DNA from: an uncultured Thermoplasmata archaeon
GTDB lineage: Archaea; Thermoplasmatota; Thermoplasmata; UBA10834
Direction of reading: 5' to 3'
Assembly: GCA_963719945.1 (NCBI GenBank)
Contig: CAVRDX010000003.1
Coordinates: 224,001 to 288,000 of the forward strand
Length of the DNA: 64,000 nt
A model generated the notes under the pieces. It did no database searches, was not told the origin of the DNA, and saw only the letters and a program-made list of their open reading frames with translations. The position numbers and the translations under genes are program-made. Positions 54,166-63,303 of the stretch are shown here, piece after piece (the first letter of the stretch is position 1; each line of letters opens with the position of its first letter).

Positions 54166-55339
54166 GCGGCGGTGGCGGTGGCACCTGACCTGGGGGAGAT
54201 CCCCAGTTCGCCCGCTGTTTCCTTGCAGCGGCGATGTCAACCACTCTCAGGAAGTCCTCTCTGGTTATGACACCGACCAGACTTCCTGACTCGTTCACGA
54301 CCGCCAATCGGTCGACTTTCTTCTCGCTCATCAGCTTCAGCGCGTCGACGGCAATAGTGCTCGGCGTGACAGTGATCGCTGGTGAGATCATCACATCCCT
54401 CACCCGGGCGAATGGAAAAGTCTGCATCGAGATCTTCTTGGTGTCTGCGAGAGTGACCATTCCCACGAGTCCTCTGTCGACGACCGGGAATCCTTTGTGA
54501 CGGGTATAGTACATCAGGTCGATGAGCTGCTGCACAGAAGTATCGGGGTGCACGACTTTGACATCGGTGGACATCAACCCCATCACATTCATGCCTTCGA
54601 GGCTATCGTTGATTATCGTCGCCTGCTCTTCGTCCCTTCCTGCGAAATAGATGAAGATCGCGATTGCGATCAGAATGATGTCGAAGCCCAGCCATATCGC
54701 GAACACTCCCATCGCGATCGCGCAGAATCTTCCGACTGCAGCTGCTTTCTTGGTTGCTTGAAGGTGCGACATCCTAGTAGCCAGCGCAGATCGCAGAACC
54801 CTTCCGCCATCCATCGGGAATGCTGGCAGTAGATTGAATGCTGCAAGGAATACGTTGTAGAACGCGATGAGGCCGAGCAATATCAGCGTGCCTTCGAGGA
54901 CTATCGAGTTGGATTCGATTAGTGCAAGAAGTTGCATCGACCCGTAGAAGACAAACCCCATGGCGAAACTGGACAGCGGCCCGGCAGCAGCCATCATCAA
55001 TTCCTGGCGTGGCTTCTTCGGAATCTCCTCCATCGTCGCGATCCCGCCGAATATCATCAGGGTTATGCTCCTGATCTTGACACCGTATCTCATCGCTACA
55101 TACGAATGGGCCAGTTCGTGGATGATGACTGTGATGAAGAAGATCACGGCTGCGACGGCGCTGAAAGCAACTCTTGTTCCCCAGTCGGTATCCAGCCCGC
55201 CAAATCCTAGGGTGATCCCTAATATCTCACTGCTGTTTTGATAGAACAAGAATACGATGAACGCGAGTATGATTATGAATGTCAGATGCAGCTTCATGGG
55301 TATGCCCATTATTCGTCCGATCGTGAGCGATGAATTCAT
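54140..55339 (-). CDS. Site-2 protease (M50) with a CBS domain pair
   Basis: HELAH, AAGP, NLLPAFPMDGG, two CBS domains and a Pro-rich tail. Confidence 0.93.
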   Translation of the reverse strand: MNSSLTIGRIMGIPMKLHLTFIIILAFIVFLFYQNSSEILGITLGFGGLDTDWGTRVAFSAVAAVIFFITVIIHELAHSYVAMRYGVKIRSITLMIFGGIATMEEIPKKPRQELMMAAAGPLSSFAMGFVFYGSMQLLALIESNSIVLEGTLILLGLIAFYNVFLAAFNLLPAFPMDGGRVLRSALATRMSHLQATKKAAAVGRFCAIAMGVFAIWLGFDIILIAIAIFIYFAGRDEEQATIINDSLEGMNVMGLMSTDVKVVHPDTSVQQLIDLMYYTRHKGFPVVDRGLVGMVTLADTKKISMQTFPFARVRDVMISPAITVTPSTIAVDALKLMSEKKVDRLAVVNESGSLVGVITREDFLRVVDIAAARKQRANWGSPPGQVPPPPPPIPPTASS

Positions 55340-55464
55340 CGAATCGTATTGTCCGTCTCCAGTATTTAATGCTTGGACGATTTCTTAGTCACTCTGGCAG
55401 CAATATTTTTCCGAAAAGGTCATATAAAAGCAATGCTACTGTCATTCAAAGGGATGGGTATTAC

Positions 55465-58400
55465 TTGCGCCGTTTGATGGCAACATGCTTGCTGGCCGTC
55501 ATTGTAGCATCTTTAATTGTGCCTGCTCATCTTATGATTTCCATCGAATCTGAGAGCGGCATGACGCCTTTGGTGGATGCTTCTTCCGAGTCATCTCCTC
55601 CCTTGAGCAGCATATCGTTCTCTCAATCGATTGACACATCTCAGATCGTTCTCGAGTATCCTCTCGTTTCGCGCGCGCTCATGCTTCCTGGTGGATCAGT
55701 TGATGTCACAATGGGTGATATCAATGGGGATGGATTGGATGATATCATTGCTGCAGTGTCCGATGAGATGATGATTTCAGTATTCTATGGTCAGATTGAT
55801 GGTGTCTATTCGAGCTACCCATCTTATAATATCTCGCTACTCAAGGAATCCCATTAGAATCGCATCATTGATTCATATGGGACTGGCACAAACCAACATT
55901 GTCGTGTTGGAGCGGAGAATTGGATTCGTTTGACACTGAGCATTTTGCCTTGTATAACCGAATATCTGATTTTTCATTCAATAGAGTTATAGACAGGACG
56001 GTCTATGAAAACGCGACAGATTTTGTTGTTGGTGAGTTCTCCGGAGATTCATACCCTGATATGGCATTCGCTGTGCTGGGCGATGCCGCAATCTCGAGCA
56101 GGTTCGATTGAGATACTGCAAGGGCCCAACCTATGCAGATTATCTCACGACTCTGACGGTGGTTATGGGTCAAATTCCATTGATGCAGGGGATTTCAATG
56201 ATGACGGGCTCCTAGATATTGCGCTATGCAATTTATTTGATTCCAATGTTATCATTTACTCAGCCTGATACAGTTGGATTCTCCTCTGACGCTTCATGCC
56301 GAGTAGTCAGGTTCTATCAACTCGATGGCTCATCCTATCGACTATGATTCGGGCAATCTCTAAATGGTGATTCGACTAGATGATTTGTTGTCGCGACCAA
56401 GGTGCCTCCTCTGATACGAATTTCTTCTTCCAGTCATACTGACCAGCTTCCTGTGACTGAAACATATGCCAGAAGCTTAATCTATTCGATTCCGAGCGCG
56501 TATCTCTCTTGGTGACATGAATGACGACTCTCGCGATGATATAATTCTGCTCAGTGAGGAGTCATGCGTCGCTATTGTGTTTCATTCAGATCGATCGTCG
56601 TATCCAGCTTGGGGCTGAAATACCCAGTCAATTATTTCCCGTAGGTGCGTATCCAACAAGCGCTTTTGTTGGCGAAATCGATGAACATCGATGGTCCTGA
56701 CCTTCTGATTTCTACATGCGGGATGATGGCTCAGGGTCCAGCATTGCGATATATTCGACTCGATTGCCAATCCTATTCGAAATAGCAACGCGACGATATG
56801 GACCGATGTGAACTACGAGGCAACTTTGCTTGCCACAGGCGACATAAATGGTGATGACCACGAGGATATCATTGCAGTCTACCCAGCGCTGAACTCGATC
56901 TGTTATCTTCTAAGCGCGGCAGGACCATCGAATTATTGGTCATCTGGGCTATTCTTCCGATGAGATTGCTGTAGTGGATATCGATGATGATGGATTCGAC
57001 GATATCATCACATCGAATAGAACTCATGATTATGTGGACGTATTATTCGGCCAAGCTTCTCTGCCTGGATCATTCACAGTCGTGCAGCTCGGTTGCGAAT
57101 CGAATGTTACTGACTTGGCGATTGGTGACATGAACTCATGACGGTTTTCCGGATATCATCGCTAGCACATCGAATGGCTCTATTTACATATTCATGAGCA
57201 CAGGCACTGGACCGAATTTCGAGGAACCAATCGTTCTGTACCCGACCCCTGGAGTATCCATTGCATCGGTTGTAGTTGGGGACTTTGACTCTGATGGCCT
57301 CGATGACATCGCATATCCTCGCGCCGACCGGGCAATTGATATTCTGCTTCAACCCGAATCTGATTCGGAGTTCAGCCTTCCTGCGGATAGAACATTGACT
57401 GCGAGCACAGATCCTGATTTCACTTTCTTGTGGTCTGGGGATATCACTGGGGATGGACGTGACGACATCGTCGCGATGCGCCCATCAGACCCGAAAATGT
57501 ATCTGTTCGACCAAGATGATTTCATCACAGCACCTCATCCATACGCAACTCTGGATCTGCCAGAGGTTCCATCTTTCGTGACTGTGACGGATGTCACTGA
57601 TGATGGACATGCGGATGTCCTGGCGATATTCGATTCTGCTGATCTGGTATTCCTATACAGGCAGAGTGGAAGTTCCTTGCCATCATCGCCTTCAATGGTC
57701 TTCGTGACCGGTGCATATCCTGTCTGGGCTGGGCTCGGGGACGGTAATGATGATCATAGGGGCGATCTCCTGGTGGTCGATTCAGGTTCTCATAGTATCT
57801 CTGTCTGGATGCAGAACAACTTCGCTCCGACTGTCTACACCGGAGGTCCGTACACCACGGAACAGGGTGATTGGCATCAATTCAATGGCTCATGTATTAC
57901 TGGCGCCTCTGAACTTCCCTATATGGAATATAGATGGGAGTTCGGGGACGGTAGCGAATCGGATTGGTCGAGAGATTCTGCACCGCTCCATCGATACATG
58001 TCCCTCGGCAACTTCACCGTGAATGTGAGCGTCAGGGACCCTTGGGGGCTGACCGATTCGGACAGTACTTACATAGTCGTAATCGACAGTGTGCCGGATG
58101 TCGAATTCACCTGGTCTCCCTTGAATCCGATAGAAGGCCAAACGGTCGTGTTCGAGGATGCGACAGAGTCCTACGATGAATTGGTCCTGCTCAATTGGTC
58201 GGTGGACGGAGCGTTGTTCTCGACAGGCTTGGAGCACACATTATTGACATCGTTCGACGATGGCATTCACACGGTCCAGCTGACCGCCTTGGATTCCGAT
58301 GGCTCGATCGCATCGATATCACATACATTTGCGGTACAGGCGGCAGATCCCGAGATGCAGATCATCGCCCCGGGAACTGCAGATGAAGGAGACGCGGTCT

Positions 58401-60556
58401 CATTCTTGGTCATCATAGATTCATGGCATGGCGGGCCCATCGATCCAATATCCAGTTACGAATGGAATTTCTCATACACTGGTGAACCATTCGTGGCATC
58501 AGAGACGACAGGGACTTCGAACACCACTGACCATGTGTTCGGAGCTTCTGGGATATCTCAGATATATGTGGTCGCAGTGAAGGTCACGGATATCGATGGA
58601 GATCACAACATCTCCTACATCAATATCGAGATATTCGACATCGGTCCGACTGCCTTGTTCGAACTCTCGAATGCCGATCCCGAGGAAGGTATACCATTCG
58701 CGATAGTGGATGAGACTTACACCTACGACGGAATAACAACCTGGAGCTGGATGCTCACATATCCAGACAGCTCCACTGAGACATGGAATCTGGATCCGAG
58801 CGGCATGGAATCTCTGGAGTTCGTGCTCGGCAATGGTTCCTATTCAATGCGGTTGCAGGTCGCAGAGGCAGACGGAGATTCAAACGCGTTCATTCTAGAT
58901 TTCGAAGTGGCCGAGATACCGCCACTCATAACTCTGATCGCCAGACCCTTATCGTCTTCATATCTTGAATTCCAGACCATGACTCTGTCTGCCCAAGTGC
59001 AGAGCCACGATGAAATCACCGGGTATCAATGGGATTTCGTATCACTAGGTGCTCAATTCATCATGGATGTCTCGACCGATTCGAACGAGACGACTCATAG
59101 TTACAGCTGGGTAGGGAACTACACTGCCAAGGTGAATGTGACAGACGAAGATGGATCATATGCTGTTGCAGAGCTAGATATTGAGGTCGTCGATGCAGGA
59201 TTGTCTGCGACGTTCGAATCCGATGTGGATATCTTGCGGGAAGACATGAACCGGACCTACGAGCTCACTTTTGACGCATCATCTATCGCCACAAGATTCC
59301 CTGACATATCTCTGACGACATGGGAGTTCGGGGATGGCTCGAAGGAGATACTTCCAGGTCCACCATCTGAAACGATAACTCACGAATACGATCCTATCCA
59401 CGACTATGTCGTGAACCTCACGATATCCGATGACGATGGGAACACGCTCATCATCTCAAAAACGCTCCTACTCATCCAACCTTCCATCGAGCTGATCAAT
59501 CCCATCGACGACAATGTGATCCGCTCAGGATCACCGATACGGTTCATCATTGGTGATGACTCGCCACCATTGGTATCTGTTCAATATTCTGTCGATTCAC
59601 AGTCGTACATGGATTTCGAGACCATGTACTCCATAGACACTGCTGGTTGGACGGACGGCACATATTCGATCTGTGTGCGCGCAGAGGACAAGGATGGCAA
59701 CATCGCAGTGAAGGACGATGTCGAAATCAGAATCGATGACACATCCCCCTCGGTAGAGGTCCTATGGTCCGAGATATCTGCATACGGTGGCGACAAGGTC
59801 AACATATCCATACAGATCACCGACGAGAACATCGATCCTGATTCAGTCGTGTTGCTCATAAAGTATCCAGGTGACGATTCCACATCATCGTTATTGATGC
59901 GGCCAGGGCTAGATGGCAAATTTTATGTCCTTGTGGAGATGCCAAAGAGATCCGGGACTGTCGAGTTCTATGTCCATGTGGCTGATCTAGCAGGCAACGA
60001 GATGACGACCGAACCGGACTACTTCGAAGTGAAACTGCATTTCATCGATGCCGCATGGCCATATCTGCTGGTTGCCGCGATGATCGCAATGGTTGGAACG
60101 GGGTTCTATTTCCTTCGTGAATCCAAGATCGCGGTGGACGAGACATTCGTGATATACAATGACGGCAGGATGCTTGCTCACAGCACTCGTCGTCTCAAGC
60201 CTGGAATGGACGATCAGGTGCTGAGCAGCATGTTCGTTGCGATCCAGGACTTCATAAAGGATTCCTTCAAGGACGAGACATCATTCACACTCCGCAAACT
60301 CGATTTCGGAGACAAGTCCGTTCTCATCGAGAAAGGGGATCATCTGTTCCTCGCAGTAGTTCTCCACGGCAAGGCCTCGAAGAAGGTGGCCAGGAAGATG
60401 AAGGATGTCCTCGACGACATCGAGGATGAGTTCTCAACGGTGCTCATGAACTGGGATGGTGACTTGGACCAGGTACGGGGAGTCACGGACATGGTCAGTC
60501 GACTGTATTCGAAAGCCCCGACCATGCCATCGGGACTGAATAGAAAGGAGACATAG
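55465..60556 (+). CDS. Large surface protein: FG-GAP/VCBS repeats, PKD/Ig-like domains, TM helix and cytoplasmic longin/roadblock-like domain; 5' part (~55850-57150) broken by several frameshifts
   Basis: GDINGDGLDDI, GEFSGDSYPD, GDFNDDGLLDI, GDINGDDHED and GDFDSDGLDD motifs are spread over several reading frames. The frame is intact from 57194 and contains WEFGDG PKD motifs. A signal peptide begins at 55465. Confidence 0.75.
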
Positions 60557-62843: not shown

Positions 62844-62954
62844 GGTCAGGACCAGGCAATAGCCACAACCATAATGAATACATCTTCTTCTATCTCGGAT
62901 CTGGTATAGTCGGCAACGAACGGTTCTGCCAAATTTCAGACAGCTCAGGCAATG

Positions 62955-62962
62955 CTTATATA
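62955..62962 (+). promoter_or_regulatory. TATA box of the 5S rRNA gene
   Basis: CTTATATA lies about 30 nt upstream of the predicted 5S 5' end. Confidence 0.6.
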
Positions 62963-62990
62963 TGACATCGTATTTAGACGGCTACAGAGA

Positions 62991-63211
62991 GGTTTGACGG
63001 CCATAGTGGCGGGGTCACACCTGGTCTCATCCCGAACCCAGAAGTTAAGCCCGCCTACGTTCTCTGTGGTACTGAGGTGCGCGAGCCCTCGGGAAGCCTA
63101 AGGTCCTAGCGGCCTCTCATGCATAGCGGCTAGATGCGCTAGCCCTGTACCTTCGGGTACAGGGTGATCCGCATCGTTTGAACCCGTTATGTGTGTGGAA
63201 CGCTGTCAGCC
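62991..63211 (+). rRNA. rrf: 5S rRNA, stand-alone, with ~97 nt of inserted sequence (total ~220 nt)
   Basis: Canonical 5S core: GGCCATAG, CCCGAACCCAGAAGTTAAGCC, GTACTG..GCGCGAGC..CGGGAAG. The helix I 5' strand GGTTTGACGG finds its partner CTGTCAGCC only at 63203-63211, and the helix V strand CGTTCT pairs with GGAACG at 63197-63202. Confidence 0.92.
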
Positions 63212-63212
63212 A

Positions 63213-63230
63213 CTCTCTTTTTACATTTTA
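63213..63230 (+). terminator. T-rich terminator after the 5S rRNA
   Basis: CTCTCTTTTTACATTTT immediately follows the helix I 3' strand. Confidence 0.6.
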
Positions 63231-63303
63231 TTATATTTCGTGCCACTTGTGACCAAGCTTTTATAAGAATACATATGACTTGTCTTACCGGAGCCGGGTA
63301 CCA

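Follow-up and report, generated by a model that had tools for sequence, protein, structure and literature searches.

The 5S rRNA gene of a Thermoplasmatota archaeon, located in the 64,000-nt stretch of DNA analysed here (the window), is opened by a single structured insert of 97 nt, and we consider it very probable that this insert stays in the functioning 5S rRNA of the cell as an expansion segment of the Halococcus type. Expansions of this type have been known since 1981. An earlier note, made from the letters of the window, had proposed both a Thermoplasmatota origin for the DNA and a structured expansion of about 97 nt in helix V, and both proposals were borne out.

To place the insert, we compared the gene with RF00001 and with the register of normal-length archaeal 5S rRNAs. 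The RF00001 match (62993-63114) scored 76.1 bits against a gathering score of 38 and was the sole Rfam match in the window; its last 20 columns align poorly, and it closes helix I on a mismatched strand. The true closing strand of helix I lies at 63202-63208 and pairs with 62995-63001 at probabilities of 0.69-0.98, which leaves 206 nt between the helix I strands here versus 109-110 nt in normal-length relatives, and thus exactly 97 extra nt. Normal archaeal genes follow the register GGGAAR, three nucleotides, GGNNCG and then helix I (H. marismortui, L118:305-426), so that the insert occupies 63100-63196, between core positions 104.1 and 105, as one piece rather than the two removable segments (63097-63109 and 63113-63196) that had been suggested. 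Removing it restores an exactly canonical core of 122 nt by register (62993-63099 plus 63197-63211), close to the normal core of about 124 nt that had been expected, with helices I-V and loop E kept. The 5' part of this core also holds helices II-III, the helix V 5' strand, loop E and helix IV, and ends in the first three nucleotides of the helix V 3' strand (CCT, 63097-63099). The landmarks read earlier by eye (GAAG at 63093-63096, GGAACG at 63197-63202, helices B1 and B2, and a UUCG-capped stem at 63143-63164) all stand where they had been placed, and the whole 5S region folds with a z-score of -4.56, none of 200 shuffles being equally stable. Relative to a canonical archaeal 5S rRNA the core is therefore alike, and the difference lies in how the gene is read: as had been foreseen, the standard model truncates it, stopping at 63114 and taking arm A of the insert as the 3' end, which is why the module stayed hidden. 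Expanded genes score 68-80 bits with RF00001 versus 90-114 bits for most normal relatives, and in many Thermoplasmatota genomes the 3' end annotated for the 5S gene is probably wrong.

Table 1. Features of the expanded 5S rRNA gene in the window (positions within the 64,000-nt stretch).
Feature	Positions	Strand	Basis
Putative promoter of the stand-alone 5S gene: BRE and TATA box (GGCAATGC, TTATATAT)	62948-62963	+	archaeal promoter consensus
5' leader AGAGAGG; predicted to pair with the 3' trailer and extend helix I in the precursor	62986-62992	+	MFE fold
5S core, 5' part	62993-63099	+	RF00001, 76.1 bits; register against normal relatives and H. marismortui 5S
Helix I, 5' strand	62995-63001	+	within the 5' core part
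97-nt expansion segment	63100-63196	+	H. marismortui position between C108 and G109; single copy in genome
Arm A: 5-bp hairpin with 5-nt loop	63101-63115	+	paired in 100% of cells, 22 family sequences
Arm B, long arm	63118-63195	+	pair probabilities 0.98-1.0; covariation
Helix B1, 12 bp	63118-63129/63184-63195	+	
Asymmetric internal loop, 5' strand C-Y-A	63130-63132	+	C 91%, A 100% in 33 diverse inserts
Helix B2, 6 bp	63133-63138/63170-63175	+	
UUCG-capped tip stem	63142-63151/63156-63165	+	
Asymmetric internal loop, 3' strand G-Y-U-N-N-A-A-M	63176-63183	+	conservation in 33 diverse inserts
5S core, 3' part: GGAAC (helix V, 3' strand), then the 3' strand of helix I (63202-63208)	63197-63211	+	
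3' trailer with CTCTCT and a tract rich in T (likely terminator)	63213-63236	+	read from sequence; pyrimidine-rich in relatives

The secondary structure of the insert is established by covariation. In a MAFFT alignment of 22 family sequences, ungapped and made independently of the structure, 92.3% of cells were paired and 17 of 33 pairs showed compensatory changes, values that none of 500 shuffles reached and that compare with 30-47% of cells paired in slid controls; the covariation among relatives that the earlier note had proposed looking for is thus present, and it extends to all four helices of the insert. Across 33 diverse inserts, in an alignment made to the model and so leaning towards the structure, 28 of 31 pairs were compensatory. 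The nested hairpin drawn earlier stood as regards B1, B2 and the UUCG stem and had missed arm A, whose strands (63101-63105/63111-63115) show compensatory changes in four of five pairs among the 22 family sequences; the CGG at 63110-63112, formerly assigned to helix V, belongs to this arm and is not conserved in the family alignment. Arm B is interrupted by a 3x8 internal loop between B1 and B2 and a 3x4 loop between B2 and the tip stem, and the two arms together with the two halves of helix V form a four-way junction. Few genomes besides this one have the perfect 9-bp tip stem; in most relatives 3 bp, a 2x2 loop and 5 bp stand in its place. RNAalifold, given the MAFFT alignment A2, did not recover arm A and B1, which are misaligned there.

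Within this structure, the most constrained element is unpaired. Across the 33 diverse inserts, the asymmetric loop between B1 and B2 keeps G63176 (100%), U63178 (94%), A63181 (100%), A63182 (97%) and A63132 (100%), so that unpaired letters are 91-100% conserved across families while the stems vary. In Thermoplasmatota the loop sits 20-23 nt from the 3' end of the insert, and the part distal to it varies from 30 to 44 nt. Because the loop is rich in invariant adenines and keeps its position despite a variable tip, we propose its 3' strand (63176-63183) as a candidate docking or protein-binding module. In twelve further loci (L161, L162, L164, L176, L182, L184, L186, L191, L192, L041, L082 and L094) the second internal loop is GAG opposite UAA, resembling the UAA/GAN A-minor motif; in this genome's family it is CUA opposite GAAC.

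Evaluating the genomic setting, we found a stand-alone gene with a divergent gene for a HAD hydrolase on one side and an ORF for a membrane protein on the other. The BRE/TATA motif recurs at equal distance in every family member examined and would serve as the promoter of the 5S gene, and the purine leader and pyrimidine trailer are likewise preserved in relatives. Oligo-T termination is established in archaea, and the T-rich tract of the trailer is a likely terminator; a sigma-70 promoter and terminator scan, a type unsuited to archaea, returned nothing at the locus. The 16S (G000 C1:50768-52235) and 23S (C1:127322-130252) genes are single and lie on another contig than the 5S gene, about 75 kb apart and unlinked to each other, as is known for Thermoplasmatales. 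Elsewhere in the window, 55330-60556 reads as a long surface protein with FG-GAP-like and PKD-like repeats (by eye), in which short ORFs (55330-55857, 55899-56111 and 56005-56268) precede an ORF of 1120 aa, possibly one gene split by frameshifts or sequencing errors.

Whether this is the genome's only 5S copy, a point singled out for checking in the earlier note, bears on the reading that the locus is a pseudogene or assembly artefact and that an unassembled normal copy does the work. A single RF00001 match was found in the genome even at E<=1, and the genome, in four contigs, is 87% complete, which leaves that reading some room, as does a 3'-half duplicate of an expanded 5S gene in another genome (G154) indicating that broken copies occur. 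Against it stand the intact core, the conserved promoter motif, the compensatory evolution and the recurrence of the same structure in at least 77 GTDB records and in single-contig genomes with one 5S gene, so that we regard this reading as scarcely credible and largely refuted already. Misassembly, which had been named as a way in which the expansion could prove false, is excluded because the 22 other family members that have a 5S match all show the same layout.

Having defined the insert, we surveyed its distribution. All 22 other family genomes with a 5S match are expanded, as are both matches in the sister family, and each family member with a match has one 5S gene, including the single-contig genomes G017, G018 and G020. 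A pattern scan of GTDB recovered at least 77 records with an expanded 5S gene, all titled Thermoplasmata, Thermoplasmatota, Methanomassiliicoccales or unplaced euryarchaeote MAGs; this is a lower bound since the pattern demanded YYY before the insert and missed Halococcus for the same reason. The insert of one UBA10834 record matches genus g4 of this genome's family, which is therefore probably UBA10834, a GTDB name that we take to denote Ca. Gimiplasmatales. With covariance model R2, built on Thermoplasmatota alone, the insert was found in 63 of 151 genomes of the class Thermoplasmata (144 with a 5S match) and in 11 of its 27 families, nearly all-or-none per family. Outside that class it occurs in all 13 genomes of family f30 and also in f31, f32, f40, f45, f47, f49 and f50. 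Being common to many Thermoplasmatota families, the insert is not private to this lineage.

Distances between cores and between inserts are correlated (Mantel rho 0.56, n=76, kin not being independent), a pattern consistent with vertical descent. Within three genera, normal and expanded 5S genes occur together (g79, L165 versus L187; g50, L144 and L194 versus L181; g99, L151 versus L192), and in g79 the cores with and without the insert are almost identical; the module is therefore not essential. The simplest reading of these patterns is an old module in Thermoplasmatota that has been lost many times, the alternative being gains by transfer in place of losses. Helix V mismatches, tried as a general mark of secondary loss, did not serve, as their counts do not separate the groups and the anchoring is unreliable. 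One family f40 gene (L171, G069:C24:26965-27086) carries a 26-nt insert at the same site, in which arm A is kept and a short GCAA (GNRA)-capped stub replaces the long arm with the four-way junction preserved, while another genus of that family (L189) has a full-length insert; the 26-nt version fits selection on junction shape, not on splicing. We also noted a partial second copy in G154 (L201:~330-480; G154:C128:8451-8547), 2.5 kb from the intact gene, comprising the 3' half of the 5S gene and the whole insert without the 5' core; a bacterial-looking normal 5S gene (L218, G269:C155:331-446) on a 2.7-kb contig, probably contamination, in an archaeal MAG whose 5S genes include an expanded one as well; and two 5S matches of only 88 nt in a family f6 genome (L188, G066:C1:81505-81592 and C9:8713-8800), of which the one that was read ends after the first strand of helix IV, without the closing helix I strand.

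The insert is likely retained in the mature RNA, judging from sequence and from the Halococcus analogy. The competing reading is that it is an intron or intervening sequence, cut out by EndA-type splicing or another nuclease to give a 122-nt or fragmented 5S rRNA. Archaeal rRNA and tRNA introns carry a bulge-helix-bulge (BHB), and the insert resembles them in that its removal restores a canonical RNA; the clean presence and absence within g79, g50 and g99 could moreover reflect reverse-transcribed spliced RNA, and genomics alone cannot rule excision out (PMC7812874). It differs from such introns in that its ends do not pair together, the 5' end forming its own hairpin, and in that no strict BHB was found at the boundaries of any of 72 inserts. 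Relaxed BHB-like matches, counted without a chance baseline, were seen in 23 of the 72, and this gene has no BHB of either kind. With no ORF in the insert, internal loops conserved at the nucleotide level, a 26-nt stub that keeps the four-way junction, and an H. morrhuae insert at the same site that is retained in ribosomes (PMC7530397), we judge excision very improbable.

To relate the insert to its haloarchaeal counterpart, we compared site, shape and sequence. Archaeal 5S expansions were found by a 2021 survey in 15 genomes belonging to only four haloarchaeal genera, namely Halococcus (the 108-nt insert of H. morrhuae), Halalkalicoccus, Halomarina and Halodesulfurarchaeum, and were described as an asymmetric V (PMC7812874). 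In H. morrhuae, whose 5S rRNA is 231 nt, cryo-EM placed the retained insert between the positions of H. marismortui C108 and G109, in a four-way junction with flexible, poorly ordered density and faint density towards 23S helix 38 (PMC7530397), and the 6.4 Å map left the secondary structure of the insert uncertain. The earlier note had seen the same general region; the site is exactly the same, and the register of GGGAAR, three nucleotides, insert and GGNNCG is shared by the window and the haloarchaeal loci L121-L132, with the insert-free L118 in step. These 12 expanded haloarchaeal loci (on metagenome contigs, with the genus inferred) have inserts of 105-112 nt, L122 for example having a 108-nt insert in a 230-nt gene, and the plasmid-borne haloarchaeal 5S genes examined were all normal. 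Like the Halococcus type, the gene described here has a single insert, a four-way junction, a short hairpin followed by a long unbranched arm with internal loops (from folds and covariation) and an undisturbed core in the sole 5S type of the genome, and it is mis-closed by standard annotation. It differs in its length (97 nt), in its UUCG-capped tip, in two pyrimidine-pyrimidine mismatches above the junction, at positions that are paired in Halococcus, and in being a stand-alone gene in another phylum and far more widespread; the distal stem-loop that is invariant in the haloarchaeal alignment is absent from Thermoplasmatota inserts. By analogy we regard the insert as a variant form that would function in the manner of the Halococcus insert and lacks its distal stem-loop.

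The earlier note had taken the expansion to be independently acquired, a claim for which we found no support given the Halococcus site and two-arm shape, the presence in many families and moderate signs of homology. Searched with R2, two haloarchaeal inserts ranked first in 60 kb, matched over their full length (one with 21.6 bits at E 0.0057, the other with 20.2 bits at E 0.013), and seven more were found at exact boundaries with E 0.5-1.6, the match being centred on the asymmetric loop. The loop motif (C-Y-A opposite G-Y-U-N-N-A-A) occurs in 72 of 87 Thermoplasmatota inserts and in two of ten haloarchaeal inserts, where it lies 22 nt from the 3' end; as a 2x8 loop in the two haloarchaeal sequences and a 2-3x8 loop overall, it matches in letters and distance. 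Dinucleotide shuffles of those inserts produce it at a rate of about 0.2%, and loop-only shuffles at 0.4-0.8%, rates that overstate significance because the motif was defined after seeing the data. Convergence on one exposed, tolerant site, with a retained insert acquired independently of that of Halococcus, is a reading about origin only and is compatible with retention; it gains from sequence-only HMMs giving no signal in either direction between Thermoplasmatota and haloarchaeal inserts, from the non-significant narrow (R1, E 5.3) and reciprocal (R3, E 0.3-3) models, from the motif's presence in so few haloarchaeal inserts, from the different distal stems, and from the fact that similarity of shape, and not just common ancestry, raises the score of a covariance model. 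Set against the same nucleotide site, the same arm order and the shared loop, we hold such convergence to be plausible at somewhat under even chances, and we lean towards distant homology of the two inserts, which is likely, not proven, as the sequence-only and reciprocal tests are weak.

Other origins for the insert were considered and rejected. A mobile or repeated element is rejected because only one copy exists in the genome. A duplication of the 5S gene itself, prompted by a weak R3 match to normal cores (E 0.26), is rejected as well; local alignment of insert against 5S with shuffle controls gave p<=0.05 in none of ten haloarchaeal and one of 87 Thermoplasmatota inserts. An RNA stand-in for protein eL20/LX is rejected by the distribution of PF01775, which is present in the insert-bearing families f1 (17/17) and f18 (19/19) and missing in f16, a family with normal 5S genes (found in 0/14 genomes of f16, 0/2 of f62 and 0/2 of genus g21). 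Bacterial 5S expansions, such as those of Thermoanaerobacterales at site 52-53 and of Halanaerobiales in loop C among others (PMC7812874), are similarly structured inserts in the 5S core, but have other sites and shapes and often lie beside normal copies.

We propose that the stand-alone gene would be transcribed from its own BRE/TATA promoter, and that trimming of the leader-trailer stem would yield an RNA of about 220 nt with a canonical core. The short hairpin and the long arm of the insert make helix V a four-way junction, a secondary structure that covariation shows and whose three-dimensional form would follow that of the H. morrhuae cryo-EM map. The RNA would be built into the central protuberance of the 50S subunit with both arms directed outward, the long arm keeping its A-rich asymmetric loop a constant distance away from the junction. 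We give about even odds to what seems the most likely role, namely docking of this loop against an adjacent 23S helix or protein binding by it, which would make the insert a useful surface strut, one that would be dispensable given the losses within genera; 23S helix 38 may be the docking partner, in view of the H. morrhuae density (PMC7530397). Retained but functionless baggage, with the fold selected only to spare the core, would account for the repeated loss within genera, the sufficiency of the stub in G069 and the flexible, poorly ordered density in H. morrhuae (PMC7530397); it sits poorly with the conservation of unpaired loop letters across families whose stems vary and with a length held at 95-113 nt across the phylum, and we think it unlikely. 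The module itself would be old in Thermoplasmatota, inherited mostly vertically and lost repeatedly.

Consistent with the earlier note, which knew of no description in this lineage, we found no paper on an expanded 5S rRNA in Thermoplasmatota in a search that covered few subscription journals. Its occurrence in some 40% of the Thermoplasmata genomes sampled, and in further classes of the phylum, turns a curiosity into a common feature of the ribosome, and dozens of diverged sequences fix its secondary structure and point to one conserved loop. The pairs with and without the insert inside genera are natural comparisons, g79 offering a clean one for studying both what the insert does and how it was lost or gained, and the role of the Halococcus insert, a question 40 years old, becomes directly testable. 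More tentatively, the insert of roughly 100 nt with its docking loop may be an ancient archaeal module, ancestral to much of Thermoplasmatota, homologous to that of Halococcus and with a specific partner in the central protuberance. If so, the 120-nt 5S rRNAs of cultured Thermoplasmatales and host-associated Methanomassiliicoccales would be reduced, derived forms, and the Halococcus insert would be a relic or a transfer from Thermoplasmatota.
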